DNA of 14,090 nt, taken from contig JANNWY010000324.1 of NCBI GenBank assembly GCA_031409335.1, positions 1 through 14,090 on the forward strand, written 5' to 3'. A program made the translations under genes and the position numbers. The notes beneath the pieces were generated by a model. That model ran no database searches. It had not been told where the DNA came from and saw nothing but the letters and a program-made list of their open reading frames with translations. The first letter of the stretch is position 1. Every line of letters begins with the position of its first letter. This document shows positions 1-14,090 of the stretch, piece after piece. This stretch comes from Chthoniobacteraceae bacterium (GTDB lineage Bacteria > Verrucomicrobiota > Verrucomicrobiia > Chthoniobacterales > Chthoniobacteraceae).

Positions 1-67
1 TCGATCCGGGTCCGCGACCGAATAATAATGGGCCGAATGCTTGAAAAAACGGAGTGATGTTAGGCAT
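1..67 (-). CDS. N-terminus of a probable IS4-family transposase (partial)
   Basis: ATG at 67 gives MPNITPFFQAFGPLLFGRGPGS, open to the window edge and just inside the IS4-like end. Only 22 codons are visible. Confidence 0.45.
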   Translation of the reverse strand, partial: MPNITPFFQAFGPLLFGRGPGS

Positions 68-140
68 ACTTACTTACCATTAACCACCCAGCGACATTAG
101 CAGCTTTTTATCCGAAATTGCCCTTAACTTAATGCCATTC
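1..140 (-). mobile_element. End of an IS4-family-like insertion sequence extending off the left edge
   Basis: The minus strand from 140 reads GAATGGCATTAAGTTAAGG, resembling IS4-group terminal inverted repeats. A near-identical end (GAATGGCATTAATTTAAGG) occurs at 1074-1092. An ORF starts about 70 nt inside. Confidence 0.6.
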
Positions 141-155
141 AAAGCTGACCCCGTT
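141..155 (+). repeat. GACCC-site repeat, partial copy (5' part replaced by the IS end)
   Basis: AAAGCTGACCCCGTT is identical to the reverse complement of 1108-1122. Confidence 0.8.
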
Positions 156-385
156 CTTCGGACCCGCGGTGCCGTAGCCGGGAGCGCGCCAGGTTTCGGC
201 TCCGCTTCGTTCCAAGGGTCTCGCTCGACCGGAAAGTTCCCGGAAGTGCCTTCCCTCGCAGCCGTGGAGGCGGGTCGAAGCAGCGGCGACCGGTGCTCGG
301 CAGCCGCAGATTTCCCTCAGCGCAAGAATATTCTCCTGATCCCTTTCTTCGGCTTGGCGGGGAATGTGGTGCAGGACGTGATCGC

Positions 386-1054
386 CTAAGTCGCGCCTTC
401 TGGATTTGCATTCCGGGGGCGAAGCTCTTGTCCGAGCACCATGCCGTTCAAAGCCAAAGAACCGCCCTTCAGTTCGCTCGATAAAGCCGGCGTTCGATTG
501 TAAACAATAGCAAAACTGTGCTGAGGGAAACCCTGAAGAGGAACGATCTCTATTTGAGGTTCTTCCCATTTCTCGCCGCGTTTCGCGGTCATGGCTTCCT
601 TAAAGGCGAGGACATCAAGACTGCTGACGATATAGGTTTCGTAGCAGATGCCTGCCCGGGGGCCGTGATACGTTTCTCGAACGATAATCTCTTGGTATGA
701 CGGGTTGCGGTTATCCGGCTGACACAGAGCTTTGTAACCCGTGAACAGCAATTGACCATGAACAAATTCCCAGCCGCGAATCGAAAAAATAGGAGGTCTG
801 CTGCGTCGACCGCGGTGCTCCCGAGGTCCGCCTTTAATTTTCCGCGCTTGGTGGTGTGTTCCGTCCGAGTGGTAGGTAAAATGTTCGTCCCCTTCGGTTT
901 GGTGGAAGCGTACTACGATGCCTCCTTTTCCTTCATGCGCAGTAGCAATTGGGTAACGTGCCCCGCCTACTTCGATCAAGAACGAGAGATGCACAGGTTC
1001 AAGCTGTGTTTTCGCAGAGGCGTTCAGGCGACCGACTTTGAGGAAAGGGGTCAT
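386..1054 (-). CDS. Hypothetical protein (orphan-like; start uncertain, possibly GTG at 994 or 5'-truncated)
   Basis: 222-codon ORF with lower GC than the flanks and protein-like composition. The ATG at 1054 lies within a repeat duplication. Confidence 0.6.
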   Translation of the reverse strand: MTPFLKVGRLNASAKTQLEPVHLSFLIEVGGARYPIATAHEGKGGIVVRFHQTEGDEHFTYHSDGTHHQARKIKGGPREHRGRRSRPPIFSIRGWEFVHGQLLFTGYKALCQPDNRNPSYQEIIVRETYHGPRAGICYETYIVSSLDVLAFKEAMTAKRGEKWEEPQIEIVPLQGFPQHSFAIVYNRTPALSSELKGGSLALNGMVLGQELRPRNANPEGAT

Positions 1055-1073
1055 GAGGAAAGGGGTCAGTCAA
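1039..1073 (-). repeat. GACCC-site partial copy with a 15-bp tandem duplication
   Basis: TGAGGAAAGGGGTCA occurs at 1039-1053 and 1054-1068. The minus strand reads TTGACTGACCCCTTTCCTCA-TGACCCCTTTCCTCA. Confidence 0.8.
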
Positions 1074-1107
1074 GAATGGCATTAATTTAAGGCCGGTTTT
1101 CAGAGGC
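1074..1107. mobile_element. About 34-bp remnant of an IS4-like element end
   Basis: GAATGGCATTAATTTAAGG matches the reverse complement of 122-140 at 18/19 positions. It is cut off by a repeat copy at 1108. Confidence 0.55.
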
Positions 1108-1134
1108 AACGGGGTCAGCTTTAGAAAGTCGCTC
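1108..1134 (-). repeat. GACCC-site repeat, full copy
   Basis: The minus strand reads GAGCGACTTTCTAAAGCTGACCCCGTT. Confidence 0.85.
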
Positions 1135-1144
1135 AAGCGCGGCA

Positions 1145-1237
1145 GGCATTTGTGGTGTGGAAAGCATGCAATCCCCAACAATGAAATCCTTTTGGCCGCG
1201 AGGCGAGAGCGATTTTCTAAAGCGGACACTCTGTTCC
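1145..1237 (+). repeat. 93-bp direct repeat, copy 1 (gene leader plus GACCC site)
   Basis: About 83/93 identical to 5270-5362 by hand alignment. Confidence 0.9.
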
Positions 1238-1248
1238 CACTCTGTTCC
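1207..1248 (+). repeat. GACCC-site variant with an 11-bp tandem duplication
   Basis: GAGCGATTTTCTAAAGCGGACAC; CACTCTGTTCC occurs at 1227-1237 and 1238-1248. Confidence 0.85.
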
Positions 1249-1297
1249 GCAATGGAGCGTGGCCGCTTTGCGGGCGCGGCGCAAGCCGCCCCTTCAA

Positions 1298-1352
1298 CTC
1301 GTTCCCAAGCTCCAGCTTGGGAACGCACTTGTCCCCGAAGCTCTGCTTCGCC
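1298..1352 (+). repeat. REP-like double-hairpin element, left of the RAYT
   Basis: 12-bp stem CGTTCCCAAGCT-CC-AGCTTGGGAACG plus CGAAGC-TCT-GCTTCG. Inverted copies lie at 1928-1982 and 2696-2750. Confidence 0.85.
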
Positions 1353-1363
1353 AAGCTCGGCCA

Positions 1364-1919
1364 ATTCGCAGCCGCTACCATGCTCGCGAATCGGATCACG
1401 GATACTTCATCACCGCCACCGTGGTCGAATGGCTGCCCGTCTTCGCCTCCACGGCGTGCTGCGACATCGTCGTGCGATCGCTTGAATACTGCCTGCCCTG
1501 AGCGAAGTCGAATGGGCCGCGAGCACAAAGGGCTGGCCATCTATGCGTGGGTCATCCTCGACAATCATCTCCACGCCATCCTCGCCGCGCCCGATCTCTC
1601 CGCCGTCCTGCGCGATCTGAAGAGCTTCACCGCCAAACAACTCGTCGAGCAGATCAAGGTCGAACGCCGCGAATGGTTGCTCCATCAGCTTCGGCATTAC
1701 CAGGCTGCGCACAAACCGAACGAATATCAGCTCTGGCAGGAGGGGTCGCATCCGCAGCGCATTCTGCGCGATGAGATGATGGAGCAAAAACGGGCATATC
1801 TGCACCACAACCCGGTAAAGCGCGGGTGGGTCAGCGAGCCGGAGCATTGGCGCTGCTCATCGGCGCACGCGTGGATGCCGGGCGCGCAGCCGATGTTGCG
1901 GTGCGATCCGTGGAGATAG
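1364..1919 (+). pseudogene. REP-associated tyrosine transposase (RAYT/TnpA-REP, Y1 HUH family), frameshifted
   Basis: Frame 1 reads (I)RSRY...YFITATVVEWLPVF...SLEYC. Frame 2 reads REHKGLAIYAWVILDNHLHAI (HUH)...RDLKSFTAK...LWQEGSHP...YLHHNPVKRG (catalytic Tyr)...WRCSSA. Removing 25 nt (1493-1517) rejoins the frames. The expected ATG reads ATT. Inverted REPs flank the gene. Confidence 0.9.
1493..1517 (+). mobile_element. 25-nt micro-insertion (TGAGC..GTCGAA type) disrupting the RAYT
   Basis: CTGCCCTGAGCGAAGTCGAATGGGC lies between the codons TGC and CGC; excising it restores the frame. Confidence 0.75.
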
Positions 1920-1990
1920 CGTGCCGCGGCGAAGCAGAGCTTCGAGGAAAAGTGCGTGCCCAAGCTGGAGCTTGGGCACGAGTTAAAAAA
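1834..1990 (+). repeat. About 155-bp direct repeat, copy 1 (RAYT 3' end plus REP)
   Basis: About 95% identical to 2602-2757 by hand alignment. Confidence 0.9.
1928..1982 (-). repeat. REP-like element, right of the RAYT (inverted)
   Basis: GGCGAAGCAGAGCTTCG...CGTGCCCAAGCTGGAGCTTGGGCACGAG. Confidence 0.85.
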
Positions 1991-1994
1991 CCCT

Positions 1995-2333
1995 TCACAG
2001 AGCGAAGAGTGCGCGGAGTCGTTGCTGGACTTGAGCTTGGAGGTTCGGTGTCAGCGAACCCAACTGCCGCTGAATGATTGTGGAGGAAACCGTCACCATT
2101 CGATGCAGGCGCAATGCAGAGCGGACCCGCAACCCCGCGCGTGCGAAATCTGCGCTGCCCGGGTCGAGCAACACATCGGTCGGTTCCAGTGTGGGCGGCA
2201 CGGCGCTCGTGATGAAGGCAAGCACCACATGACGATGCTGGCCTGCTGCGTCGGTAAGACATACCGCTGGCCTGACCTTGCTGCCGGAGAGGTCGTCGAA
2301 CGGAAACGGAACCAGGACAACCCTATACCGCAT
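1995..2333 (-). CDS. PemK/MazF-family type II toxin
   Basis: MRYRVVLVPFPFDDLSGSKVRPAVCL...AFITS...GLRVRSALRLHRMVTV...LGSL carries the MazF-type motifs. It is 112 aa and overlaps the upstream small gene. Confidence 0.9.
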   Translation of the reverse strand: MRYRVVLVPFPFDDLSGSKVRPAVCLTDAAGQHRHVVLAFITSAVPPTLEPTDVLLDPGSADFARAGLRVRSALRLHRMVTVSSTIIQRQLGSLTPNLQAQVQQRLRALFAL

Positions 2334-2562
2334 CGCGGAAAGGCTCGCCGTCGGCTGATGTGTAGATGTCTTCGGCAGGGTCGGCAAGAAACGCGAAAGC
2401 ATCGCTGGACGCCGCTGCCCGCAGCCAAACATCCTCGGAATCCGTGTCGGACGTGGAAGGAAGCAGCGTCACCATGAGGCTGGCGTTGGCGGGCAGGTCA
2501 TACGGCTCATCGAGAACGATGTGCTCGCCGTCGTAGTGGGCTTGAAGTGCTACCGTAGGCAT
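2323..2562 (-). CDS. Putative antitoxin of the MazF-type toxin
   Basis: 79-aa acidic protein (MPTVALQAHYDGEHIVLDEPYDLP...EDIYTSADGEPF) overlapping the toxin start. Confidence 0.8.
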   Translation of the reverse strand: MPTVALQAHYDGEHIVLDEPYDLPANASLMVTLLPSTSDTDSEDVWLRAAASSDAFAFLADPAEDIYTSADGEPFRDAV

Positions 2563-2601
2563 AATCCAAGATGATACCGGGCTTTCCGTTTCAGGGCAAG
2601 C

Positions 2602-2757
2602 GCGAGCCGGAGCATTGGCGCTACTCGTCGGCGCACGAGTGGATGCCGGGCGCGCAGCCGATGTTGCGGTGCGATCCGTGGAGGCAGCGTGCTGCGGCGA
2701 AGCAGAGCTTCGGGGAAAAGTGCGTGCCCAAGCTGGAGCTTGGGTACGAGTAAAAAA
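2602..2757 (+). repeat. About 155-bp direct repeat, copy 2 (RAYT C-terminal fragment plus REP at 2696-2750)
   Basis: Encodes EPEHWRYSSAHEWMPGAQPMLRCDPWR, followed by a REP palindrome. Confidence 0.9.
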
Positions 2758-2831
2758 GCCTGCCTCGTCCGAGGCGTGTTTGAATCTTTTCGCCTCAGCA
2801 GGCCGCCCGATCAAATTCCTTGTGTCACGAT

Positions 2832-2863
2832 GAGCGAGATTCTAAAGCTGACCCTCTGCTTCT
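2832..2863 (+). repeat. GACCC-site repeat, full copy
   Basis: GAGCGAGATTCTAAAGCTGACCCTCTGCTTCT, 28/32 identical to 4219-4250. Confidence 0.9.
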
Positions 2864-3136
2864 CGCGATGTCATGACCAGTAGCGACGCGGGCAAGGCCA
2901 ATGATGCCATTCCAGATGAAGCGGTGCTGCGGTTTGCCATCGGGAACGGCCGTGCGGTGATTACGCACAACCGCCGGGATTTCCTGCGCCTGCATGGCCG
3001 GAATCCGGACCACGAAGGCATCATTGTCTGCACGGACAATCCCGACTTCCCCGCGCTCGCAGCGAAAGTCCACGCCCGGCTTCACGCGATGGAATCTCTC
3101 AAGGGCCAGTTGCTGCGGATCAATCGCGGAGAGTAA
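2864..3136 (+). pseudogene. 5'-truncated DUF5615-like PIN-domain toxin
   Basis: DVMTSSDAGKANDAIPDEAVLRFAIGNGRAVITHNRRDFLRLH...HEGII. The N-terminal 'DEN' strand and helix are absent, and the frame is closed upstream at 2831. It begins immediately after the repeat. Confidence 0.75.
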
Positions 3137-3213
3137 CCCGCCACCTTCGTGAAGTAGCAAGAGCGCCTGAAATCCCGTGCCCGAGTGGCTATGGAGACAT
3201 CGACCCTGAAAGT

Positions 3214-3245
3214 GAGCGAGATTCTAAAACCGACCCCATCTCCGC
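3214..3245 (+). repeat. GACCC-site repeat, full copy
   Basis: GAGCGAGATTCTAAAACCGACCCCATCTCCGC; 3217-3245 is identical to 4012-4040. Confidence 0.9.
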
Positions 3246-4011
3246 CCCCCGCCGCCACGCTGCTGCCAGCACGTCGGCGCGTTGCACTTCTCCATACAGA
3301 CTCCAAAACCGATACTCCGGCTTGGACTTCGCTTTCCGATACAGGGTGATTTGCAGTTGCCGGACTTTGTCGGGTGCTGTTAGCCCTCGCGGGCCGTCAC
3401 CACCGAGGCGGCGGCGCCCGGGACAAGCGGTGGCAGGGTGTCTCGGGCGAGCCGTCCTTCCGTGCGCTTCCCGCCTGCGGAACAAGTGGCGTCCCTTCGC
3501 TCCTCCGCGGGTTCTCCGAACCAGAGGTCCGGCGCGGGATCATCACTACTACGAACGCCTCCGACTCCTGCCACGGCCCGCGCAGCCTTCCCCTTTGCAG
3601 GGGTTGTGCCGCCAGTTGAGTCTTCTTTACTCGCCATGACAGGTTTGCCTCGGATTTAGGAGAATGTTAGCGAGGCTATCTCCGCTGCGCTCCGGTTCCC
3701 CGCTTACCCGCGCTTCACTTCCCGGCATGTCGCCCACGCCGACCCCGCCGGTCCATTGTCAAAACCCACGACGATTGATTCGGGTTCCGACTCTTCGGCC
3801 TTCGCCCAATCTCGAGGGGCTCGGCTGCCGGGATGACTTTTTCGAGGCTCATTTATGTGGTTCATATGTTCATTGCGACCTGCTGGTTCGACTCCATGCC
3901 TGCTCCCCACCCCGCCTCGCGGCGACGCAGTTGGCACGGTCTTCGGTGCTGAACCGTCTAATTGCACCGACGGGACTTTCACCCGCGTTGAGGCGCGCTT
4001 TGCGGGCGCAC
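3246..4011 (-). mobile_element. Group II intron, 5' fragment (approximately domains I-III and the start of the IEP; domains V/VI absent)
   Basis: Starts GTGCGCCCG at 4011, followed by GGGTGAAAGTCCC. It has DII/DIII-like GGAGTCGGAGGCGTTCGTAGTAG...GGAGCGAAGGGACGCC and then an RT N-terminal coding sequence. Confidence 0.9.
3250..3383 (-). pseudogene. N-terminal fragment of a group II intron reverse transcriptase/maturase
   Basis: LTAPDKVRQLQITLYRKAKSKPEYRFWSLYGEVQRADVLAAAWRR, cut off just before the expected 'N.GAPGVDG' motif by the repeat copy. Confidence 0.85.
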
Positions 4012-4040
4012 CGAGATTCTAAAACCGACCCCATCTCCGC
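4012..4040 (+). repeat. GACCC-site repeat split by the intron (the intron's 5' exon)
   Basis: CGAGATTCTAAAACCGACCCCATCTCCGC lacks the leading GAG, which is replaced by the intron 5' end. Confidence 0.9.
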
Positions 4041-4043
4041 TCC

Positions 4044-4205
4044 GCCCTCACCCACTCCGGCAGCAACACGATGTGGATGGCCGTCGCTTGGATCGCCCCC
4101 GCGAAAGACTTCGCCGTCCTCGTCGCCTGCAACCAGGCCAGCGACAAGGCCTGCAACGACGCCGTCCTCACCCTCATCGCCGACCATTTCAAGGACGAGC
4201 GGTAA
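4044..4205 (+). pseudogene. C-terminal fragment of a serine hydrolase (beta-lactamase/AmpC-like family)
   Basis: ALTHSGSNTMWMAVAWIAPAKDFAVLVACNQASDKACNDAVLTLI...* shows the H-S-G triad and the terminal strand and helix. It is not in the ORF track and starts right after the repeat. Confidence 0.7.
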
Positions 4206-4218
4206 TCGTCTTGCGAGT

Positions 4219-4250
4219 GATCGAACTTCTAAAGCTAACCCTCTGCTTCT
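4219..4250 (+). repeat. GACCC-site repeat variant
   Basis: GATCGAACTTCTAAAGCTAACCCTCTGCTTCT. Confidence 0.85.
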
Positions 4251-4546
4251 TGGAGAGAGAATTTTTGGTCAGCACCGGGAACCTTGGAAATCTTATCCAC
4301 TTGATTCTGTGTCAGGTGGACGACGGGCAGTTTCGTTACAGCAGTCGGGGGTGGATATGAAGGCGGTAGCGATAGGATGGAGACATAGGCTGCCTTGCCG
4401 CGTCGCAAGGTTCTTACATAGAATTGTCCTGTGCCTGATATGGGAATTCCGTCAACCAAGATGTCAAAATCAACCTCCCCGTTCTTCAAATCAGCAGCAG
4501 GGAGGTGTTCAGGTAGCGTAACAATAAAACGATCATCAGTTTTCAT
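4235..4546 (-). CDS. Hypothetical protein (103 aa; stop codon lies inside the repeat)
   Basis: Low-GC ORF, co-oriented with the two upstream genes; possibly 3'-truncated. Confidence 0.6.
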   Translation of the reverse strand: MKTDDRFIVTLPEHLPAADLKNGEVDFDILVDGIPISGTGQFYVRTLRRGKAAYVSILSLPPSYPPPTAVTKLPVVHLTQNQVDKISKVPGADQKFSLQEAEG

Positions 4547-4576
4547 ATATTAGGCGTTGGTATTGTGTCGAGGGTG

Positions 4577-5014
4577 CTAGCGGCGAACATAGATGGCGGT
4601 CCCTTGAAGCTGCGCCTGTGAGTTGTGCCCGCCGACTAGCGCAATCGTTGATGCACCTGCCGCCCCGATCATACCGTTCAACGTGCTGCCTGCATTTACG
4701 GAGTTCAGGATAATGCCGTTGGCACCAAGGGAAGCCGCCTGCTTGCGTAACTCATCCACCGCATTTTGGCTGTCGGACTGTTGGGTAAGCCCATTGACGG
4801 AGCGGGACGTGACGATGCCAACGACTTCATACGGCACGGTCGGTGGCTGCGGATAGACGGTAACGCTCATGGGAATGATGGCAGAGCGGCGGTTGCCCGT
4901 AAGGATAGCCGAACCGGTGGCACCGCACCCCTGCAAAAAGGTGGCAGCGCATAAAATGAAAACAACGCGCTGGATTGATTGCAATGGGAGTTTCGTGAAC
5001 GAAATCTGATTCAT
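4577..5014 (-). CDS. Putative lipoprotein, YbjQ/DUF4156-like
   Basis: Signal peptide with lipobox FLQG-C; PYEVVGIV...AVDELRKQAASLGANGIIL pattern; ATGA overlap with the upstream gene at 5011-5014. Confidence 0.7.
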   Translation of the reverse strand: MNQISFTKLPLQSIQRVVFILCAATFLQGCGATGSAILTGNRRSAIIPMSVTVYPQPPTVPYEVVGIVTSRSVNGLTQQSDSQNAVDELRKQAASLGANGIILNSVNAGSTLNGMIGAAGASTIALVGGHNSQAQLQGTAIYVRR

Positions 5015-5292
5015 GGTTCGAGGACGGGTTGCCACTGCTTTTTGTTTGAAAACTGATAGGTGCTAAGGATGTAAGTGGTGCCTGTCCAAGTGTCGATGCG
5101 AAACGTGTCCGACTCTGTTGCGTGGAGTTGGTAACGATTGCCGACGGCCAAATAGCACAGGGCACTTGTCACAATGCCAATCATCATGCCGCAAAGTGTG
5201 GTAAAGACATAGCGAACGACAGGAGTCTTCGGTGGGGATAAATCAGTTGTAGCGTCCTCCTGTGATGCTGGCATTTGTGGTGTGGAAGGCAT
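5011..5292 (-). CDS. Small single-pass membrane protein
   Basis: Hydrophobic segment YVFTTLCGMMIGIVTSALCYLAV followed by RYQL...FRIDTWTGTTY; coupled to the downstream lipoprotein. Confidence 0.65.
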   Translation of the reverse strand: MPSTPQMPASQEDATTDLSPPKTPVVRYVFTTLCGMMIGIVTSALCYLAVGNRYQLHATESDTFRIDTWTGTTYILSTYQFSNKKQWQPVLEP

Positions 5293-5362
5293 GCGTTTAC
5301 CAACAATGAAATCCTTTTGGCGGCGAGGCGAGAGCGATTTTTAAAAGCTGACCCTCTGTTCC
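5270..5362 (+). repeat. 93-bp direct repeat, copy 2, including the GACCC site at 5332-5362
   Basis: The site reads GAGCGATTTTTAAAAGCTGACCCTCTGTTCC; the whole segment matches 1145-1237. Confidence 0.9.
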
Positions 5363-5381
5363 GCACTCCTGACCGGCAAAC

Positions 5382-5595
5382 TCAGCAGATGAGCCAGGGC
5401 CGGAGCACCAGTTTGCGCACGCCGGGGCGGCGGCGCACGGGGCCGCCGCGATGCGGCAGGCGGGAGGGTTTCGGCCTGGTCGAGCAGGCGCGTGCCGAGC
5501 CGCCCGGCGGCGGCGGGATCGCGCGGGGCGATGTCACGGACGATCTGCTCGAGATCGGCGAGGGCGAGCGTGCCGGGGATTACTTTGTCATCCAT
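5382..5595 (-). pseudogene. RelE/ParE-family toxin, frameshifted and 3'-truncated
   Basis: MDDKVI...ALADLEQIVRDIA..DPAAAGRLGTRLLDQAETL, frameshift, then RLPHRGGPVRRRPGVRKLVLRPWLIC*. The final ParE strands are missing. Confidence 0.75.
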
Positions 5596-5798
5596 CCGGC
5601 GAGGCGCTGGCGCGCTTCCTCGATCGTCACGCCGGGGCCGGTTTCCATCGACGCAATGCCGGCGTCGATGGCGGCGAGCATTTCGGGCGTCTCGTCGATC
5701 TCCAAGCCGGCGTCGAGCAAGACGAGACGGCGGAGGATGGTTTGCCGTTCGCCGTCGTCGAGGCGGGGCAGTTCATCGAGGATTTCGGTCATGCTCAT
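5580..5798 (-). CDS. Putative antitoxin (addiction-module type)
   Basis: 72-aa acidic protein (MSMTEILDELPRL...LAAIDAGIASMETGPGVTIEEARQRL) overlapping the ParE start. Confidence 0.75.
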   Translation of the reverse strand: MSMTEILDELPRLDDGERQTILRRLVLLDAGLEIDETPEMLAAIDAGIASMETGPGVTIEEARQRLAGWMTK

Positions 5799-6012
5799 GG
5801 ATCGGGGTTACACGATGGAAGCAGCGAGGCAGCGCGCCTCATTTCGCACCGCGCGTCGCGGGGGTGGCGGCGTTCGTGGGCGGCTTTCCGTGACTCATTT
5901 TGACGGCACAGGTGGGAATTGGGCCGATCGAATCTTTCCTGTTAAACAAACAAAATTGGGACACTTGCGGAAAATGCTCGGCGGCTCGCCGCTGCCTGTG
6001 CAGTTTCCGCAT

Positions 6013-7797
6013 ATGCGAATTCCCATCCTTCTCTCGCTCTTCGCCCTCACCACTTCACTCTATGCCGCGCTTCCGACTTACGATCACATCGTCGTCGTCG
6101 TGGAGGAAAATAAGTCGCGCACGCAAATCATCGGAAATACCGCGGAGGCTCCGTTCCTCAACGCGCTCGCCCGACGTGGCGTGTCGCTCACGAACATGGC
6201 GGGGATCACGCATCCGAGTCAGCCGAACTATCTGGAGATGTTCAGCGGGGATTCGCAGGGCGTGCAGAGTAACAACAAGCCGGGCGGTCTCCCTTTCACC
6301 ACGCCAAATCTGGCGGCGGCACTGATCGCGGCGGGGAAGACTTTCATCGGCTACGCGGAAGACCTGCCGGCAGCGGGGGATGCGGATACCGTAAAGACCA
6401 TCTATCCAGATGGACGGGATCGTTATGCGCGAAAGCATGTGCCTTGGACGAACTGGCAGAGCAGCGCAAATCCGCTGCCGCCCAACGCGCTGCCGCCTTC
6501 GGTGAATCAGCCGTTCAGCGCGTTCCCCACCGATTTTACTCTGCTCCCGGATGTCGCGTTCGTGATTCCCAATGAATCGCACGACATGCACAGCGGCGTG
6601 GATCGCGTGCGCGTGGGCGATCGCTGGCTGGCGGGGCGGCTCGCGGCGTATGCGAGCTGGGCGTTGGCGAATAATTCGCTGCTGATCGTGACGTGGGATG
6701 AGGATGATTCGCGGTCGGGAAATCAGATTCCGACCGTGTTTTACGGCGCCCATCTGCGGGTGGGCGACAATGAGGGGGCGTGGACGCTGCATCATTTGCT
6801 GAGGACGCTCACGGATCTGACGGGGATCGCACCGATGGGGCGCGCGGTGGAGGTTTCGCGGATCGCGGGAATTTTCACGGGGGATGAGCCGGTGATGACG
6901 CGGACTTTCCGACAGGGCGCGACGTATCGGGGGACGCTGGATGTGACGCTGCGGGAGGCTGCGCCGAATGATCCGATCGCGACGACGGTGAAGGGCGTGG
7001 TGGGGATGTCACCAGTTTCGGGGGTCGAGGATCAGGTGTTGTTGCGCTTCGACAATATTTTCGGCCCGACTCCGCAGCAATTGCCCACCGACGCGACGGT
7101 CGTCTCGGCGCAGCTCCGCTTGCAGACGGGGTCGGCGGTGGCAGTGGATGGGACGACACAACTGGTGGCGCTGCATCGGATGCGGATTCCGTTTAGCGCG
7201 GCTTCGACGTGGAATACTTTCGCGGGCGGTGTGGATACGGACGACGTGGAGGCGGAGGCGTCCGCGGAGTTCACGGCGACGCCGCGTTTTGCGAACGATG
7301 TCGCGCGCTTCGATGTCACCCCGACGCTGCTGGATATTGCCGCCGGTGGATCCAACGACGGGTGGCTCGTGAAGCTGGCCGGCACGGATTCGTGGCGCTT
7401 TGTGCTGTCTGAAAGTACCACGAGCATCGCCGGTCGCCCGACGCTGCACGTGACGGTGGCCGCGAGCGAGCTGTCGCTGGATTCCACGCTCGTGCGCGTG
7501 AATGAAAACGCGGGCAGCGTCGCCATCACCGTGCATCGTACTGGCGCGCTGGATGCCGTGGCGACGGTCGATATCATCACGCTCGATGGGACGGCGATCG
7601 GTGGCAGCGATTTCACATCGCGGAGCGGGACGCTCATCTGGCCCGCCGGTGATGCGACCGATCAGACGCTCGTGATCCCGATCCGCAACAACGCGCCGAT
7701 CGAAGGCCGCGAAACTTTCACCGTGAAACTGCGCGCCCCGGCGGGCATCGGAAAGATCGGCGCAATCCGGCAGACGACGGTGGTGATCCTGGAATAG
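6013..7797 (+). CDS. Secreted phosphoesterase/acid phosphatase with DNRLRE-like and Calx-beta domains
   Basis: Signal peptide from ATG 6013; DHIVVVVEENKS, THPSQPNY, YARKHVPW, HDMH and LLIVTWDEDD motifs; LLRFD..SAQLRL..TWN..GW..RPTL; C-terminal VNENAG...DGTA..GSDF...ETFTVKL. Confidence 0.85.
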   Translation: MRIPILLSLFALTTSLYAALPTYDHIVVVVEENKSRTQIIGNTAEAPFLNALARRGVSLTNMAGITHPSQPNYLEMFSGDSQGVQSNNKPGGLPFTTPNLAAALIAAGKTFIGYAEDLPAAGDADTVKTIYPDGRDRYARKHVPWTNWQSSANPLPPNALPPSVNQPFSAFPTDFTLLPDVAFVIPNESHDMHSGVDRVRVGDRWLAGRLAAYASWALANNSLLIVTWDEDDSRSGNQIPTVFYGAHLRVGDNEGAWTLHHLLRTLTDLTGIAPMGRAVEVSRIAGIFTGDEPVMTRTFRQGATYRGTLDVTLREAAPNDPIATTVKGVVGMSPVSGVEDQVLLRFDNIFGPTPQQLPTDATVVSAQLRLQTGSAVAVDGTTQLVALHRMRIPFSAASTWNTFAGGVDTDDVEAEASAEFTATPRFANDVARFDVTPTLLDIAAGGSNDGWLVKLAGTDSWRFVLSESTTSIAGRPTLHVTVAASELSLDSTLVRVNENAGSVAITVHRTGALDAVATVDIITLDGTAIGGSDFTSRSGTLIWPAGDATDQTLVIPIRNNAPIEGRETFTVKLRAPAGIGKIGAIRQTTVVILE

Positions 7798-7863
7798 GCG
7801 GGGAAGCGCTGCGCGAGCGCGCGCCTCCTAAGAAATCTGCGCGCCTCCAGTCTCCCACAGAGC

Positions 7864-10581
7864 ATGTTTTTCCACCCATTTCGCACCCCGTTGCTTCTCG
7901 CGCTCCTCGTCGCGTTCGCTTCCCCGGCCCGCGCAGTCATCGAACCGGGGGAGGTGCTGATCGGCGAGATGAATTGCGTGGCCTGTCACGAGGCGGCGCC
8001 GGCGGTGAAGGAGCGGCTGGCTTCGCGGCAGTCGCCGCGGCTCGGCGCGGATGGCGTGAAGTTGTCGCCGCAATGGCTGCGCGCATTTTTCGCAAATCCT
8101 CAGACGACTCAGCCGGGCACGCTGATGCCCGACATGCTGCATGGCCTCGCGCCTGCGGAGAAGGATTCCGCAGCGGAGGCGCTCACCCATTTTCTCGTCT
8201 CGCTCCAGCCGGCGGCGACGGGAAAGGAGAGCGGCGCGAGCACGGCGGCGATCAAGGCGGGCGCGGAACTTTTTCACTCCGTGGGTTGCGTGATGTGCCA
8301 TGCGCCAGCCGATGCGCCGCGCGGGAAAGAGGGCGATGCGGCGGTGATGGATGCAGTGAAAAAGGTCGCGGAGCACGCGGTGCCGATGGGTGATTTGGCG
8401 AAGAAATATTCGGTCGCGGAACTGGCTGCGTTCCTCCGCGATCCCTTGAAGACGCGGCCTTCCGGGCGGATGCCATCGTTGAAATTGAACGACGGCGAGG
8501 CGCGGGCGATCGCGATGTATTTGCTGCGCGCGCAAGTGCCCGCGGGCGCGGCGGCGAAATTGAGCGGGCTCTCGTACGAGTATTACGAAAAGAGTTTGCC
8601 GGAGCTGCCGGAGTTCGACCGGCTGACACCGGACGCGACGGGGACGACCGAGACTTTCACGCTCGCGGTGGCGAAACGGAAAGGCGATTTCGCGCTGCGT
8701 TTCCGCGGAATCCTGACGGTGCCGACGGATGGCGACTACAAATTTTACACGACAAGCGACGATGGCACGCGGCTCTCCATCGACGAAAAAGTGGTGGTGG
8801 AAAACAACGGAATCCACCCCGCGCAGGAGCGCAGCGCGCCGGTGAAATTGAGCGCGGGCGATCACACGATCACGCTGCTGTATTTCGACGGCGGCGGGCA
8901 GACCGCGATGAAGATCGAGTGGAAACCGCCCGGCGGAAAACGCGAGAGCATTCCCGCAAACCTGCTCTCGCACGAAGGCCAGCCGATGCGCCCGCTCGGC
9001 GAGGTGCCGTTCACTGTCGATGCCGCGAAGGCGGGGCAGGGGAAGGAGCTGTTTGCGCGGATGAATTGCGCGGCGTGTCATCAGCTCGACGCGCCCGGGG
9101 TGAAGGCGCGCGCGCTGGCGGACATCAAGGGCCGCCAGCCGGGCGGATGTCTGGCGACGAATCCGAAACCGAACGTGCCGAAGTTTGAAATCACCGACCG
9201 CCAGCGCGCGGTGCTGATCGCCCAACTCGGCGCGCAGGATCTCCTCTCGGTGCCGCTCAATGCGGGCGATCAAATCAAACGCACGATGACGACGCTGAAC
9301 TGCTACGCGTGCCATCAGCGCGACCGGCGCGGCGGTGTGGAAGGCGTGCGCGGCGAATATCTCGCGAACGTGGGCGAGGTCGATCTCGGCGACGAGGGCC
9401 GCATCCCGCCGCATCTGAATGCGGTCGGCGCGAAGCTGCAGCCGGAATGGGTCAAGACGGTGCTTTGGAAAAATGGCGCGGTGCGTCCGTATATGGCGAC
9501 GCGCATGCCGCAGTTCGGCGAGGCGAATGTGAAGCGGCTGCCCGCGCTTTTCGAGCAGGCCGATGCCAGCCCGGCGGTGGAACTTCCCGCCGATGCAAAC
9601 GCACCGAAATTTGGCCGCAAGCTGGTCGGTGTCGGCGGCTACACCTGCATCGCGTGCCACGTTTTCGCCGATTACAAATCGCTCGGCGTCCCCGCGCTCG
9701 ATCTCACGACCACGGCCACGCGTCTCAAGCCCGACTGGTTCCGCCGCTACCTGCTTGATCCACAAGCGCTCCGACCCGGCACTCGGATGCCGAGCTTTTT
9801 TCCCGGCGGCGTGGCCGCAAACCGCGACGTGCTGGGCGGCGATGCGGACAAGCAGATCGGCGCGATCTGGGCGTATCTCGCGAAAGGCCGGGAAGCCGAC
9901 TTGCCCGCCGGGCTCGTGCAGGGGAAGCAGGAACTCATCGCCGATGCCGAGGCGGTGATTTACCGGAATTTCATCGAAGGCGCGGGCTCGCGCGCGATCG
10001 GCGTGGGCTTTCCCGAGAAGGCAAATTTGGCATTCGACGCAAATGAAATGCGGCTCGCGCTGATCTGGCAGGGACCGTTCATTGATGCCGCTAAACATCG
10101 CAGCGGGCGAGGCGACGGCTTCCAAAAACCACTCGGCGTGAACGTGGTGAAAGGTCCGCCGGGGCCGCCATTCGCCGTGCTGGAAAGCGAGAGCGCCGCG
10201 TGGCCTGCCGCAGTCGGGAAGGACGGCGGCTACCAATTCAAAGGCTACCGCCTCGACGACAAACAACGCCCTGCGTTCCGCTTCACGTTCAATGGCGCGG
10301 AGATCGAAGACTACTCCGTCGCCGTGCCCGCCGAAGTCGATGCAACCCTCAAACGCACGATCACCCTCACCGCGCCGAAAGCGATCGAGCGGCTGTATTT
10401 CCGCGCAGCGGTGGCGGACAAGATCGAAGCGAAAGATGGCGCGTTCATCGTCGGAAAAATGACGCTGAAATTTCCCGGCGCGAAACCCATCGTCCGCGCG
10501 GCGAACGGAAAATCCGAGCTGCTCATCCCGCTCATATTCGCCGGAAAGGAAGCGAAGATCGTGGAGGAGATGGTTTGGTAG
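7864..10581 (+). CDS. Exported multiheme c-type cytochrome with a PA14 domain
   Basis: Signal peptide; five CxxCH motifs (CVACH, CVMCH, CAACH, CYACH, CIACH) with downstream MP motifs; PA14-like FALRFRGIL.VP.DGDYKFYTTSDDGTRL. Confidence 0.9.
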   Translation: MFFHPFRTPLLLALLVAFASPARAVIEPGEVLIGEMNCVACHEAAPAVKERLASRQSPRLGADGVKLSPQWLRAFFANPQTTQPGTLMPDMLHGLAPAEKDSAAEALTHFLVSLQPAATGKESGASTAAIKAGAELFHSVGCVMCHAPADAPRGKEGDAAVMDAVKKVAEHAVPMGDLAKKYSVAELAAFLRDPLKTRPSGRMPSLKLNDGEARAIAMYLLRAQVPAGAAAKLSGLSYEYYEKSLPELPEFDRLTPDATGTTETFTLAVAKRKGDFALRFRGILTVPTDGDYKFYTTSDDGTRLSIDEKVVVENNGIHPAQERSAPVKLSAGDHTITLLYFDGGGQTAMKIEWKPPGGKRESIPANLLSHEGQPMRPLGEVPFTVDAAKAGQGKELFARMNCAACHQLDAPGVKARALADIKGRQPGGCLATNPKPNVPKFEITDRQRAVLIAQLGAQDLLSVPLNAGDQIKRTMTTLNCYACHQRDRRGGVEGVRGEYLANVGEVDLGDEGRIPPHLNAVGAKLQPEWVKTVLWKNGAVRPYMATRMPQFGEANVKRLPALFEQADASPAVELPADANAPKFGRKLVGVGGYTCIACHVFADYKSLGVPALDLTTTATRLKPDWFRRYLLDPQALRPGTRMPSFFPGGVAANRDVLGGDADKQIGAIWAYLAKGREADLPAGLVQGKQELIADAEAVIYRNFIEGAGSRAIGVGFPEKANLAFDANEMRLALIWQGPFIDAAKHRSGRGDGFQKPLGVNVVKGPPGPPFAVLESESAAWPAAVGKDGGYQFKGYRLDDKQRPAFRFTFNGAEIEDYSVAVPAEVDATLKRTITLTAPKAIERLYFRAAVADKIEAKDGAFIVGKMTLKFPGAKPIVRAANGKSELLIPLIFAGKEAKIVEEMVW

Positions 10582-10600
10582 CGGCGGATTTGCCCGCCGC
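10581..10600 (+). terminator. GC-rich hairpin after the cytochrome gene
   Basis: GCGGCGG-ATTTGC-CCGCCGC; no U-tract follows. Confidence 0.35.
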
Positions 10601-10613
10601 GCGAAGGGCTGGT

Positions 10614-10637
10614 GAGCGACCTGGGCTAACCCTTTTC
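10614..10637 (+). repeat. Degenerate GACCC-site-like sequence
   Basis: GAGCGAC-CTGG-GCTAACCCTTTTC has both half-motifs, but the spacer is shorter than consensus. Confidence 0.4.
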
Positions 10638-10669
10638 CCCCACGACATAGCTGGGCGACGCCGTCGAGG

Positions 10670-11024
10670 GGCTTCGAGGCCCTCGCCCCACTGGTGCCAC
10701 GGCGCGAACGCTCTGCGCGCCAGCGCCTTCCCTTTCCACCCCGGAGCGCTCACCGGCTAGCCGCCGGAGCGGCAATTCCGCGCGCGGTGTGAACGCCGGG
10801 CGATAGATCGCGCGAGCCAGCGGCGCACGCAGTTCGTCGGCGAAGAACGCCGGCGGATTGGCGACTATGTTGAAGATCTCGGCCTCAAGCCTTTCGACAA
10901 GCTCATGACCTGACGGCAGCGCGCCGTCATTGCCCTGGGCGATGAAGTTCTGGATGAACTCGTGCGCGAGCTTGATCGGCTCGCCGACAGGCACGCCGAG
11001 GCGGATGAGGTCTTTGGTGTTCAT
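10670..11024 (-). pseudogene. rtcB: N-terminal fragment of an RtcB-family RNA ligase, with two insertions
   Basis: MNTKDLIRLGVPVGEPIKLAHEFIQNFIAQG...LARAIYRPAFTPRAEL, then in another frame APWHQWGEGLEA. This resembles, from recall, the N-terminal extension of PVC-group RtcB. The catalytic MPDAH region is absent. Confidence 0.55.
10890..10916 (-). mobile_element. 27-nt in-frame micro-insertion (TGAGC..GTCGAA type)
   Basis: CCGTCAGGTCATGAGCTTGTCGAAAGG (PSGHELVER) shares its core with 1493-1517. Boundaries are inferred. Confidence 0.55.
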
Positions 11025-11204
11025 GGTGTGGTTCGTTTGAAAATGGCGGGCGCAGCGTGCGGACACACTTCGAGTGCGCAGCGGTGTTTGTTCTTTTTGT
11101 CGTCGGTAAAGATCGCCCTTGGGGAGAAGTGTGAAGCTCTTCTAACCTGCGCGCTTGATGCACAAAATCGAAAGTCAGCTTCGCGAAGAGAAAGAACCGT
11201 CGCT

Positions 11205-11624
11205 GTGATCCGCGCCGTCCTCGATACCAATGTCCTCGATTCCGCTTTTCGCTCCAGTCGCGGCTACTCGTTCGATGTCTTCGTCGCTTTGCGACAAGAC
11301 CGCTGGCGTGCCGTCCTCAGCAATCACCTTATCCACGAGTATGAGGAAATCCTGAAAGCGCACGCTGCTGAACTCGGCCTTGCTCTCGCGGAGATCGACA
11401 CGTTGCTCGATGCCATCTGTGCTCGTGCGGAAGAGTGGCAACTCGCTGCGGGCTGGCTTCCCATTCTCGCCGATCCCGACGATGAACCGCTCGTCCAACT
11501 CGCCTACGACTCCGCCGCCCGCCGTATCGTCACCCACAACGTGCGCCATCTCGCGCCCGCCCGCGCTCTGACCATCGCAGTCTTGCTGCCCCGCGAGTTC
11601 GCAGCCATGATTCCCACGCCATGA
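11205..11624 (+). CDS. PIN-domain putative toxin
   Basis: GTG start; IRAVLDTNV...EYEEIL...DPDDEPLVQLA...IVTHNVRH. Confidence 0.85.
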   Translation: MIRAVLDTNVLDSAFRSSRGYSFDVFVALRQDRWRAVLSNHLIHEYEEILKAHAAELGLALAEIDTLLDAICARAEEWQLAAGWLPILADPDDEPLVQLAYDSAARRIVTHNVRHLAPARALTIAVLLPREFAAMIPTP

Positions 11625-11854
11625 CGATCCAGGTCACACTGCCCGATAGCCTCGCCGCGCAAGCGCGCGAACTCGCCACCCGCGAGCACATCACCGTGGA
11701 TGCCCTCGTGGCCAGCGCCCTCACCGCGCAACTCGATCACACTCCGCAACGCCCCACCATCGCGGAGCGCGCCGCCCGAGTTAATTGGGAAGCGGTGGAC
11801 GCCATCCTTGCTCGCGTTCCGGACGTGCCCCCGGTGCCGGGTGACGAGCGGTAG
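11621..11854 (+). CDS. Putative ribbon-helix-helix antitoxin (downstream of the toxin)
   Basis: MTIQVTLPDSLAAQARELATREHITVDALVASAL; ATGA overlap with the PIN gene. Confidence 0.8.
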   Translation: MTIQVTLPDSLAAQARELATREHITVDALVASALTAQLDHTPQRPTIAERAARVNWEAVDAILARVPDVPPVPGDER

Positions 11855-11858
11855 CGTT

Positions 11859-12004
11859 TCCGACGTCCCCATGCCCTTCTCGGCGCCTGCCTCCTCCGCA
11901 TGTCCGAACTCTGGCCCGAAGCCCCCGTCTTCACCCTCGACTCCGATTTCCGCGCCTATCGCCGCAACAAGCGCCAGTCGCTGCCGCTGATCTGCCCGTC
12001 GTAA
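11859..12004 (+). pseudogene. C-terminal fragment of a VapC-like PIN toxin
   Basis: SDVPM, frameshift, ACLLRMSELWPEAPVFTLDSDFRAYRRNKRQSLPLICPS*. Not in the ORF track. Confidence 0.7.
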
Positions 12005-12009
12005 AAATC

Positions 12010-13119
12010 ATGAGCAGTTGGGTTGCGGAAATTCGGAGACGAGAAGCAGAGGCGCGGCGCTCGGAGCGCGAGACACGCAAGCGGCATCGGGAATTGGAGC
12101 GGCGCATCAAGGAACGCGCGAAACTATCGGCACTGCAACAAGCACAGCTCGACGTGGAGGCGCACGAGAACGCCCTGGAGGTTTTGCTCTCGGTTCACAA
12201 AGAGCAGAGTGCGCCGATCGAGTGGGCGAAATTTGCGGCAGCGCTCCCGCCGCATCAGCCGGTAAGATCGGGTCAGCACGAATTTGCGGCGGTGCTCAGG
12301 CATGGCATCGCTGATTTGGAAAATGCGGCTGAAAGCGGGAACGCTGCTGCGGAGCAGGCGCGCGCGCTGGACGAGCGGGAATATCGGGCACAGCGAGAAA
12401 GTTACGAAGGCGAACTGGCGGAGCGGGAGCGAATGCGTGCGCTGGCGAAGCGGGTGCTGTCCGGCGAAGCGGGAGCTTATTCCGAAGCCATCTCGGAGTT
12501 TTCCGCGCTCGGTGAAATGGCCCACCTCGGCTCTTCCATCCACATCACGGTGTGCAGTCCAAAGCTCGTGGAATGTTTGCTGACGGTGAATGGCCGGGAG
12601 GCGATTCCTGCGGAAGTGAAATCGCTGACCGCGGCGGGGAAGCTTTCCGTGAAGAACATGCCCAAGCCGCGGTTTCACGAGATCTATCAGGACTACGTGT
12701 GCGGCTGTGTCTTGCGGCTTGCGCGCGAAGTGTTGGCCTTGTTGCCAGTCGATCAGGTTCTAGTCACGGCGTCGGTCAAGGGGACTGACGCGCGCACTGG
12801 CCAGCCGGCTGATGTGCCAGTGCTCTCCGGGGCCATGAGCCGTGAGGTTGTCGAGCGGCTGGATTTCGAGCGGCTCGATCCGTCTCACTCGATGGAAAAC
12901 TTCCCACATCGCGGCGACGTGAAGGCGTCACGCAAAGGTGGCGAGTTCGTGGCCATCGTCCCGCTCACGCCCGAAGATTTGGCACCGGCTCAGCCAGAGC
13001 GGATGGACTTCACCGGCTTGCTCAACAACGTCCGCCAGCTTCGCGCGGACATCGGCTCCAAGCTAAAGCCTGCGACGCCGCTGCCTGCTGACCACAAAGA
13101 AGAAACCTCTCCCGCATGA
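12010..13119 (+). CDS. Hypothetical protein with an N-terminal coiled coil and a globular C-terminal domain
   Basis: 369-aa ORF with motif EIYQDYVCGCVLRLAREVLALLP; ATGA overlap with the next gene. Confidence 0.8.
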   Translation: MSSWVAEIRRREAEARRSERETRKRHRELERRIKERAKLSALQQAQLDVEAHENALEVLLSVHKEQSAPIEWAKFAAALPPHQPVRSGQHEFAAVLRHGIADLENAAESGNAAAEQARALDEREYRAQRESYEGELAERERMRALAKRVLSGEAGAYSEAISEFSALGEMAHLGSSIHITVCSPKLVECLLTVNGREAIPAEVKSLTAAGKLSVKNMPKPRFHEIYQDYVCGCVLRLAREVLALLPVDQVLVTASVKGTDARTGQPADVPVLSGAMSREVVERLDFERLDPSHSMENFPHRGDVKASRKGGEFVAIVPLTPEDLAPAQPERMDFTGLLNNVRQLRADIGSKLKPATPLPADHKEETSPA

Positions 13120-14090
13120 CGACCTTTCTTCTGGTGCTTTGGCTGATCACGAGTGCAGCGCTCGCGGTGTTTTATTTCCTCAAACAGCGCTCGGATGCGG
13201 CCGCCTCCTCCGCAAGACAGCAAGCGGCTGCCGCCCGGCAGGAGAGCGAACGTGAAGTCGAATTGGCGCGCCAGGAATCGAAGTCGGCGGTGGCGCGAGC
13301 GCGCGGCGAATCGGATGCAGCGGTGGCCTATGCGCAGCAGACGCTTGAACAGAAGCTCGCCGAGCTGGCCGCGGAATCCGAGCGCGTTCGCGAACATTAC
13401 GAAAGAGAAGCGCTGAAAGTGCATGAAGCGGCGACGCAACAACTGGAAGCGGCGCTGGCTGAACTCGCTCCGCTGCGCGGCTACGCCAGCCTGCAGGATG
13501 CGGAGAGCGAAGTGCGGAAGACTCTCGCCGAAGCCATCGCGGAAGCCGCGGCTTTGCGACGAGAAGCTCAGATGCTGGTGGATCAAACCAAAGAGGCGAC
13601 ATCGCAAGATCGCGCGGCATCGCAGCAGCGGGCGAAGGATCTGCGTGCGCAGGCAGAGGCGCTTCTTGTTCAGGCCAACCGCGATGCTGGCCGGATCATC
13701 GAAGCTGCGGAACGTCGGGCCGAACAAACTGCCGGGGACGCTTACGTTGCCTTGCGCGACAAGCAGGTGCTCGAAGAAGCGATCCCGGCGCTGTGGAATG
13801 AGGTTAATGGTTACGGCGACCGCTACGTGATACCCACGCGCAGCTTGCTGGACGATCTGGCGGCGGACTTCGGCCATACGGAAGCGGGCGAAGAACTAAG
13901 AGCCGCACGTGAGCAGTCGCGCCGCTTGGTTGAGCTGAAGCAGGCAGCGGCCTGCAACTATGAGGAAGAGGATCGGCGGGATCGCGCCAATCGGTTCGTG
14001 ATCGATGCCTTCAACGGGCGCGTGGATGCCATTCTCAGCCGCACCAAGCACGATAACTACGGGACTTTGGAACGAGAGATTCGCGACGCC
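13116..14090 (+). CDS. DUF4041-like membrane-anchored coiled-coil protein (partial, runs off the right edge)
   Basis: Hand-translated: MTTFLLVLWLITSAALAVFYFL (TM), a long coiled coil, then GYGDRYVIPTRSLLDDLA...FVIDAFNGRVDAILSRTKHDNYGTLEREIRDA. No stop codon in the window. Confidence 0.8.
   Translation, partial: MTTFLLVLWLITSAALAVFYFLKQRSDAAASSARQQAAAARQESEREVELARQESKSAVARARGESDAAVAYAQQTLEQKLAELAAESERVREHYEREALKVHEAATQQLEAALAELAPLRGYASLQDAESEVRKTLAEAIAEAAALRREAQMLVDQTKEATSQDRAASQQRAKDLRAQAEALLVQANRDAGRIIEAAERRAEQTAGDAYVALRDKQVLEEAIPALWNEVNGYGDRYVIPTRSLLDDLAADFGHTEAGEELRAAREQSRRLVELKQAAACNYEEEDRRDRANRFVIDAFNGRVDAILSRTKHDNYGTLEREIRDA

Follow-up and report, generated by a model that had tools for sequence, protein, structure and literature searches.

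A group II intron lineage with a strong bias towards the terminal inverted repeats of TIRtrons

Introduction

What determines the position of a group II intron that lies in a short repeat, further copies of which recur on either side of it? This question is raised by a 14,090-nt stretch of DNA from a Chthoniobacteraceae bacterium (assembly GCA_031409335.1, contig JANNWY010000324.1, positions 1 to 14,090), hereafter the window. The original prediction held that a loop of the intron reads the repeat of an array, that the intron lineage may be specialised on this repeat, and that introns residing in integron attC sites provide the analogy. The target specificities covered by the accessible part of a 2015 review on bacterial group II introns are homing sites, terminators and attC sites (PMC4424553).

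Results

The window intron is a dead 5' fragment

As predicted, the intron begins with GTGCG at position 4011 of the minus strand, immediately preceded by the exon ...TTTTAGAATCTCG (...GGGGTCGGTTTTAGAATCTCG). Rfam model RF02005 (group-II-D1D4-6) matches positions 3979-3733 with 54.5 bits (E 3e-13, gathering score 49) and is the single Rfam match listed for the window. Over nearly its full length, the fragment is 76-82% identical to its seven best matches in other genomes. The following features were assigned:

3250..4011, minus strand: 5' fragment of a group II intron, ~762 nt, that retains domains I-III plus the first part of the domain IV ORF and lacks domains V and VI
3804..3820, minus strand: EBS1 hairpin GCCC-CUCGAGAUU-GGGC, with EBS1 at 3814-3808 (CGAGAUU) and U at 3815 in the delta position
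3836..3839, minus strand: candidate EBS2, 4 nt after CUCGAAA, forming 2/4 pairs at the window site
3380..3637, minus strand: N-terminal piece (85 aa) of the RT/maturase ORF, matching the start of a 495-aa homologue and put out of frame by a repeat insert
3250..3401, minus strand: second ORF piece (start of the RT), ending at the next repeat
3403..3452, no strand: dispersed repeat insert of ~50 nt, skipped by related contigs and matching many unrelated places
~3644-3696, no strand: second insert of similar size in the intron, skipped by related contigs
3213..3249, minus strand: unoccupied copy of the repeat (a terminal inverted repeat, TIR), whose outer end adjoins and truncates the intron; 29 nt are identical to the intron's 5' exon

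Similarity to full-length relatives ends at ~3250, inside the start of the RT, where the repeat copy at 3213 follows with its outer end. Domains V/VI and an intact RT-maturase ORF, both present in the homologues L004 and L150, are absent from the window copy, which is a dead fragment of a group II intron. Since the intron is truncated at ~3250, its 3' exon is not in place. The claim that the intron splits a repeat between GAG and CGAGATT is thus not borne out as an observation: the window copy has no 3' end, and the exon CTC is deduced from the other repeat copies and from the relative L150, which has CTC. Contigs of two public runs from one study bridge the break point, and one contig bridges the 5' junction, which makes an assembler error at the truncation unlikely; the two runs may be the source samples and do not represent an independent strain. 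A search of plasmids with the intron DNA gave no match, and viral contigs gave 0 matches to the intron motif.

The loop of the 3804-3820 hairpin is EBS1

The CGAGAUU loop (3814-3808) pairs in 7/7 positions with AATCTCG of the 5' exon (4018-4012), exactly as predicted. Folded locally, positions 3804-3820 form the expected hairpin with a 4-bp stem and a 9-nt loop, which sits on a stem-loop of RF02005; in a fold of all 452 nt, the stem is formed only in part (z -1.89). The assignment is carried by co-variation. Among 74 introns with a 17-nt hairpin, which display 41 different loop sequences, loop and exon form on average 6.12/7 pairs, compared to 4.08/7 after permutation (maximum 4.57 in 2000 permutations). 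The candidate EBS2 segment pairs with exon positions -9 to -12 with a z-score of 7.2 for the 74 introns and 5.7 for the 35 non-redundant ones, while the other eight offsets yield z ≤2.6. Co-variation at both segments identifies the hairpin as EBS1, accompanied by a weak EBS2, and upholds the view of the loop as EBS1-like; we take the hairpin to be the one labelled Id3 in the usual nomenclature. For EBS3, no co-varying base was found in the region examined: at the expected place, directly following the EBS1 stem, every intron that could be parsed has G, and position +1 is A in 31/42 and C in 8/42 introns. Alternatively, the U preceding EBS1 could pair with A at +1.

The lineage encodes an endonuclease-less RT/maturase

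The 495-aa homologue scores 403.7 bits on TIGR04416, above the cut-off for group II RT/maturases, and comprises RVT_1 and GIIM but no endonuclease domain. Among four references, the named protein closest to it is Ni.ha.I1 (g3), with 43.6% identity; Ni.ha.I1 matches Rfam D1D4-4 and the lineage D1D4-6. In an RT tree, from which labelled C, D, E, g4 and basal F references were absent, the lineage forms a clade of its own (95%), which groups with g2, g3 and an S.ag.I2-like unclassified reference at 94% SH-aLRT. The suggested phylogenetic classification of the encoded protein places the clade only to within this group. The intron is endonuclease-less and IIB-like; with a 7-nt EBS1 plus a co-varying EBS2, it is not IIC. 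In having RT and maturase only, the lineage resembles a broadly defined class F, comprising g2-g4 and endonuclease-less introns that are unclassified, as outlined in the accessible part of PMC3552965; in Table S2 of that paper, a Chthoniobacter flavus fragment is entered as unclassified.

Two further members in the window genome deserve mention. On C7, positions 14163-14863 (L233), a 700-nt copy has lost most of its ORF but retains intact domains I and V/VI; it lies within a gene that reads on in frame through the junction, and it is possibly still spliced. A more distant member of the clade on C32 (L325), with ~55% protein identity, has its 5' part replaced by an IS-like element.

The repeat is the terminal inverted repeat of TIRtrons

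The repeat is not restricted to the array named in the prediction; 27 copies occur genome-wide at ≤4 mismatches. On contig C257 of the same genome, it forms an inverted pair (arms 20/22 identical) around a frameshifted Y1 gene at 230-1213 (Y1_Tnp, E 1.1e-7), and at 22/30 loci of relatives of this gene an inverted pair carrying GGGGTC was read by eye. TIRtrons, also named TIRYT, constitute subclass 2.1 of the TnpA-Y1 family, and their repeats share GGGGWSAS, according to the accessible parts of PMC3733652 and PMC6006769. Likewise, TIRtrons are portrayed there as Y1 genes between inverted GGGGWSAS repeats that occur both as dispersed families and in clusters, as is the case for the window repeat (PMC3733652, PMC6006769). 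By its position around Y1 genes, the window repeat is the terminal inverted repeat (GGGGWSAS) of these Y1-transposase elements. The C-terminal 231 aa of the C257 transposase, where proteins of subclass 2.1 bear a helix-turn-helix, gave no Pfam match. In the window, besides the copy at 3213..3249, we find:

4012..4032, minus strand: occupied TIR (5' exon), with GGGGTCGG at -21 and IBS1 AATCTCG at 4018-4012
2831..2855, minus strand: unoccupied TIR copy with the same IBS1 AATCTCG
4218..4242, minus strand: TIR copy with diverged IBS1
5331..5355, minus strand: TIR copy with diverged IBS1
1111..1232, no strand: small element between an inverted TIR pair (arms 1114-1134 and 1207-1227), a non-autonomous TIRtron-like unit

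The occupied TIR is 90% identical to a TIR that flanks a Y1 gene in another genome, and the left arm of the small element matches a TIR beside a Y1 gene in 23/24 positions. The copies at 4032, 3237 and 2855 are one base off GGGGWSAS. That unoccupied copies carry the same IBS1 is correct, AATCTCG being present in those at 2831 and 3213. The core of the TIR is a rough dyad, GTCA-N12/13-TGAC. The status of the repeat as a functional site, for which the prediction had invoked the intron, follows from its position around Y1 genes and not from the intron.

The window TIRs are without their transposase. Each of the five co-oriented copies is followed by a gene fragment or by short genes, and two of the fragments have copies elsewhere in the genome, which suggests repeated one-ended rearrangement at TIRs. 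Outside one TIR end, positions 2866-3136 hold a piece of a DUF5615 gene with a copy on C288 (88%); outside another, positions 4044-4205 encode a weakly beta-lactamase-like C-terminus (Pfam E 0.12), a copy of which on C35 (89%) also lies beside a TIR. These two fragments suggest one-ended capture or deletion at TIRs. Elsewhere, introns occupy TIRs of small paired-TIR elements that lack a transposase (L076 and L150); for L076, an identical unoccupied copy is located 709 nt upstream.

A third to a half of the insertions lie in TIRs, at a single register

Intron 5' ends were collected with intron-internal patterns, so that the exons were unselected. These 5' ends were drawn from 151 genomes of the family, which contributed 30 loci, from five of these genomes with every copy included, from a set with one genome per species (48 loci, with record titles mostly from Verrucomicrobiota and many from Chthoniobacterales) and from metagenomes (at least 121 loci). 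Among the matches listed, 204 5' ends were obtained; after five with <24 nt of exon had been dropped, 129 distinct exons remained, and removal of one false call, one tandem insertion and three introns of a sister lineage left 124 distinct sites.

GGGGWSAS (≤1 mismatch) starts at -21 in 23/124 and at -20 in 7/124 of these sites, where 0.67 were expected (maximum 7 in 1000 shuffles); it starts once at -22 and at none of the positions from -8 to -19. The 20-nt register corresponds to a TIR subtype that is 1 nt shorter (L252 vs L170). In an independent comparison with a library of 60 TIRs from Y1 loci, chosen without reference to introns, a strict rule (≥75% library match) places 33 sites in forward and 8 in reverse TIRs, that is 41/124, compared to an expectation of 0.08 from upstream DNA and ~1.0 from shuffles; a lenient rule yields 42 + 15 = 57/124, with a few doubtful calls. 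The strict share is 38/109 without the multi-copy genome, 14/47 in genomes and 27/77 in metagenomes. This one intron lineage hence displays a strong bias to TIRtron ends, where between a third and a half of its insertions lie. Of 13 sites whose exon ending resembles that of the window intron, 10 are TIRs; they were picked by this ending, and the figure is descriptive only.

Insertions into TIRs share a single register, in which only the last two bases of the inner, TG-AC-type half-site lie beyond the insertion point. The equivalent bond of the dyad is entered on either strand: the reverse orientation is seen directly in 7/42 introns with a 3' exon (6 at 1 mismatch), and one reverse-type site (L115) lies directly 3' of the end of a Y1 gene. 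The TIR sites involve 14-16 of the 41 EBS1 sequences. TIR subtypes differ in the middle of the repeat, and the EBS1 sequences of the resident introns match each subtype.

The bias is not exclusive

The prediction that the lineage is specialised on the repeat stands only in part. To its credit are the 41-57 TIR sites at one register; against it, 67-83/124 sites are not TIRs. A location of most homologues outside the repeat had been named as evidence against specialisation, and this is partly what we observe, yet the TIR share is far above expectation. In the window genome, the three other copies with a 5' end all lie outside TIRs, one of them inside an ORF, which points to bias and not to exclusivity. 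In one genome, only 3-5/15 distinct sites are TIRs, and identical introns occupy TIR and non-TIR sites of one genome. A TIR-only subclade was sought and not found: in a domain I tree (79 rows, EBS columns omitted), TIR use is scattered, requiring 19 changes versus a shuffled mean of 22.4, with 50-52/500 shuffles as low.

Perfect IBS1 matches in the window genome are TIRs in only 25/2076 cases (0-7% with a full EBS2 match), so that pairing alone does not yield the bias. For matches outside long ORFs, the CGAGAUU loop has an expected TIR share of 7-12% if EBS2 is disregarded and of 11-46% if 2-3 EBS2 pairs are required; for a CGAAUUU loop, the share is 2-19%. When GTC(A/G) is present at -18, 16/21 perfect IBS1 sites of the window genome are TIR-like. 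The same motif occurs at -18 in 6/67 non-TIR insertion sites, compared to 0.5 expected; decayed TIRs may be among them.

In a sister lineage whose 5' end is related, 0/21 distinct sites are TIRs; this control comprises 10 genomes of two genera, in which the Y1 query matched only 1/11 and 4/22 genomes. Homologues were found phylum-wide in 36/401 genomes, and the parser gave a 5' boundary with a 6/6 match for 1/30 loci, which is not a TIR. The 3' flanks of several of these phylum-wide homologues presumably resemble other short repeats.

Several observations concern the sites outside TIRs. The sister lineage (L294-L323) has recurring targets of its own, e.g., GCGGAGCTGGGGC and CCGTTTTTAGGC. Non-TIR sites of the main lineage often lie in other recurring repeats, namely TGTCATCCTG (11 sites), TTCCC..AATTCC (8 sites) and CTTGCTCTTG/ATCTTAATC, found in the L107 group, in L002, L033, L038, L040, L138, L177, L197 and L198, and in L031, L034 and L041. 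By resemblance, these repeats may be linked to Y1 transposases. Genome G012 carries 21 intron copies (L031-L057), 20 of them on the plus strand of the contigs, with one head-to-tail pair (L048/L049).

Discussion

How could an intron lineage come to reside so often at the ends of one type of transposable element? We consider it slightly favored, with a probability of roughly 55%, that the lineage as a whole has tracked TIRs by ordinary reverse splicing, through re-matching of its EBS segments combined with a soft distal preference. The window intron inserted into the TIR of a TIRtron, as one member of a lineage that may have followed the TIR family in the course of evolution. The start of EBS1, conserved as CAA, CGA or CAG, would fit the conserved half-site of the TIR, and the rest of EBS1 and EBS2 would re-match the local TIR subtypes. 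The bias would be increased by a soft preference for GTC(A/G) around -18 to -15, probably exerted by the intron protein as in RmInt introns; proteins of RmInt introns read the distal 5' exon, according to the available part of PMC4615759. Because GTC(A/G) is present in only 6/67 non-TIR sites, of which some are perhaps decayed TIRs, such reading by the protein is a probable rather than an observed step. TIR-inserted copies may persist because TIRs are multi-copy, intergenic and available on both strands, which would amount to a selective benefit. Later, another TIR end truncated the window copy, and two small inserts entered it.

The strongest competing account, which we nevertheless hold to be rather unlikely, is ordinary homing followed by a survival filter. 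According to it, the match to TIRs arose by chance in an ancestor, EBS1/EBS2 pairing alone directs insertion, insertions into genes are lost, TIRs are the most frequent of the matches that do no harm, and no part of the intron recognises TIRs as such. Indeed, the TIR share of 7-46% computed for the CGAGAUU loop outside long ORFs overlaps the observed 33-46%, identical introns are present in TIR and non-TIR sites of one genome, and most non-TIR sites are without the distal motif. Since pairing plus selection against gene insertions could give 7-46%, any dedicated recognition step is putative. The calculation, however, presupposes an EBS1 that already fits a TIR subtype, and the CGAAUUU loop reaches just 2-19%. 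Moreover, the filter leaves unexplained why 14-16 EBS1 sequences meet at one register while other registers are empty, it does not account for the 0/21 of the sister lineage, and lineage members do persist inside an ORF.

Improbable, and more so than the survival filter, is an entry guided by structure or by a partner, in which the Y1 transposase binds or opens single strands of the TIR, or the dyad forms a hairpin, similar to IIC introns at terminators and attC sites. The use of both dyad strands at the equivalent bond would agree with this, as would the location of an IS end next to a TIR-like motif at 16/17 places, which indicates that TIRs draw several elements. In addition, the protein is without endonuclease, and endonuclease-less introns depend on primers from the replication fork, as stated in the accessible part of PMC4424553. 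On the other hand, the 3' arm of the dyad overlaps IBS1, such that a hairpin would hide the very bases that pair with EBS1, which makes guided entry less likely. The 7-nt EBS1 and the co-varying EBS2 are unlike IIC, and a Y1 match was found at only 4/42 forward-type sites, although many of these loci end at the intron.

We reject as very improbable an integron-type cassette array in which the repeats serve as attC-like sites and the intron is attC-specialised: five co-oriented copies do lie between short genes, including toxin-antitoxin genes, and the genome does carry an integron integrase (C166, 416 bits), but the repeat flanks Y1 genes as inverted pairs at 22/30 loci and on C257, no copy lies within 700 nt of the integrase, the pieces that adjoin the repeats are gene fragments instead of whole cassettes, and the intron, with its 7-nt EBS1 and co-varying EBS2, is not IIC, so that the predicted attC analogy is wrong in kind.

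Insertion of an intron into the ends of another mobile element has a precedent. RmInt2 of Sinorhizobium meliloti GR4 (class D) sits in the inverted repeats of ISRm17, with all seven copies located in the IS (accessible part of PMC4615759). Like the lineage described here, it is endonuclease-less, resides in TIRs of another mobile element, has a short and relaxed EBS2, and finds its sites available on both replication strands (PMC4615759). As far as that part of the paper tells, RmInt2 represents one intron with one target in one strain, whereas here at least 14 EBS1 sequences meet many subtypes of Y1 (HUH) repeats; unlike RmInt2, the lineage enters both strands of a single repeat at one register and uses other sites as well. 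With IIC-attC introns, as described in the accessible parts of PMC4424553 and PMC7923331, the lineage shares insertion at a fixed point of a recombination-type repeat that belongs to another mobile system. Those introns, however, pair over 3-4 nt, are without EBS2 and read a hairpin (PMC4424553, PMC7923331), in contrast to 7-nt pairing, a co-varying EBS2 and TIRtron ends that account for only a third to a half of the sites. The accessible parts of the TIRtron literature mention no introns in TIRs (PMC3733652, PMC6006769), whereas here a TIR is occupied by one. Our search of titles and abstract starts, subscription literature being outside its range, retrieved no description of TIRtron targeting by introns. 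Introns in IS ends are already known from RmInt2. A paper from 2007 reportedly deals with specialised group II intron lineages.

One genetic parasite, the intron lineage, appears to track another, the tyrosine-transposase elements. A single register in a diversifying repeat family with a rewritten EBS1 would represent natural retargeting in action, and the lineage supplies dozens of matched EBS-target pairs, with which the sequence read by the intron protein can be tested directly. TIRtrons themselves are barely studied, and we found the word TIRtron in one paper. The significance is tempered by the RmInt2 precedent, by the dead state of the window copy and by a mechanism that may be pairing plus selection. 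In a broader and tentative reading, less probable than TIR tracking by reverse splicing, the clade, perhaps much of class F, would be a dedicated parasite of Y1 repeats, whose protein reads the half-site or which is drawn by the transposase, with EBS1/EBS2 re-tuned for each subtype. If so, such repeats would join homing sites, terminators and attC as a fourth class of target, and TGTCATCCTG, TTCCC..AATTCC and CTTGCTCTTG would represent additional repeat families of this type.

Other elements in the window

An IS-like end, TTAACTTAATGCCATT, occurs at window positions 124-139 and 1075-1090 and at 15 more places in the genome, often at contig ends; at 16/17 places it was read by eye to adjoin a TIR-like motif, and C227 carries a related end next to a DDE_Tnp_1 gene. 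The corresponding IS, presumably of the IS4 family, may also target TIRtron ends. The fixed insertion point of the introns, together with an IS at the same repeats, makes it likely that the GTCA...TGAC dyad is the working part of the TIR. A RAYT-type gene at 1293-1987 (Y1-type gene 1317-1919) scores 74.9 bits on NF047646, below the cut-off of 80, with an apparent frameshift near 1500; the 60-nt inverted repeats around it are unrelated to TIRs, and its 3' end is duplicated at 2602-2760. Finally, the window contains a PemK/MazF-type toxin gene at 1995-2432 (Pfam E 1e-11) with a probable small antitoxin upstream, as well as an antitoxin-like short ORF at 5580-5798 and a PIN-like pair near 11210-11854, the last two recognized by eye.
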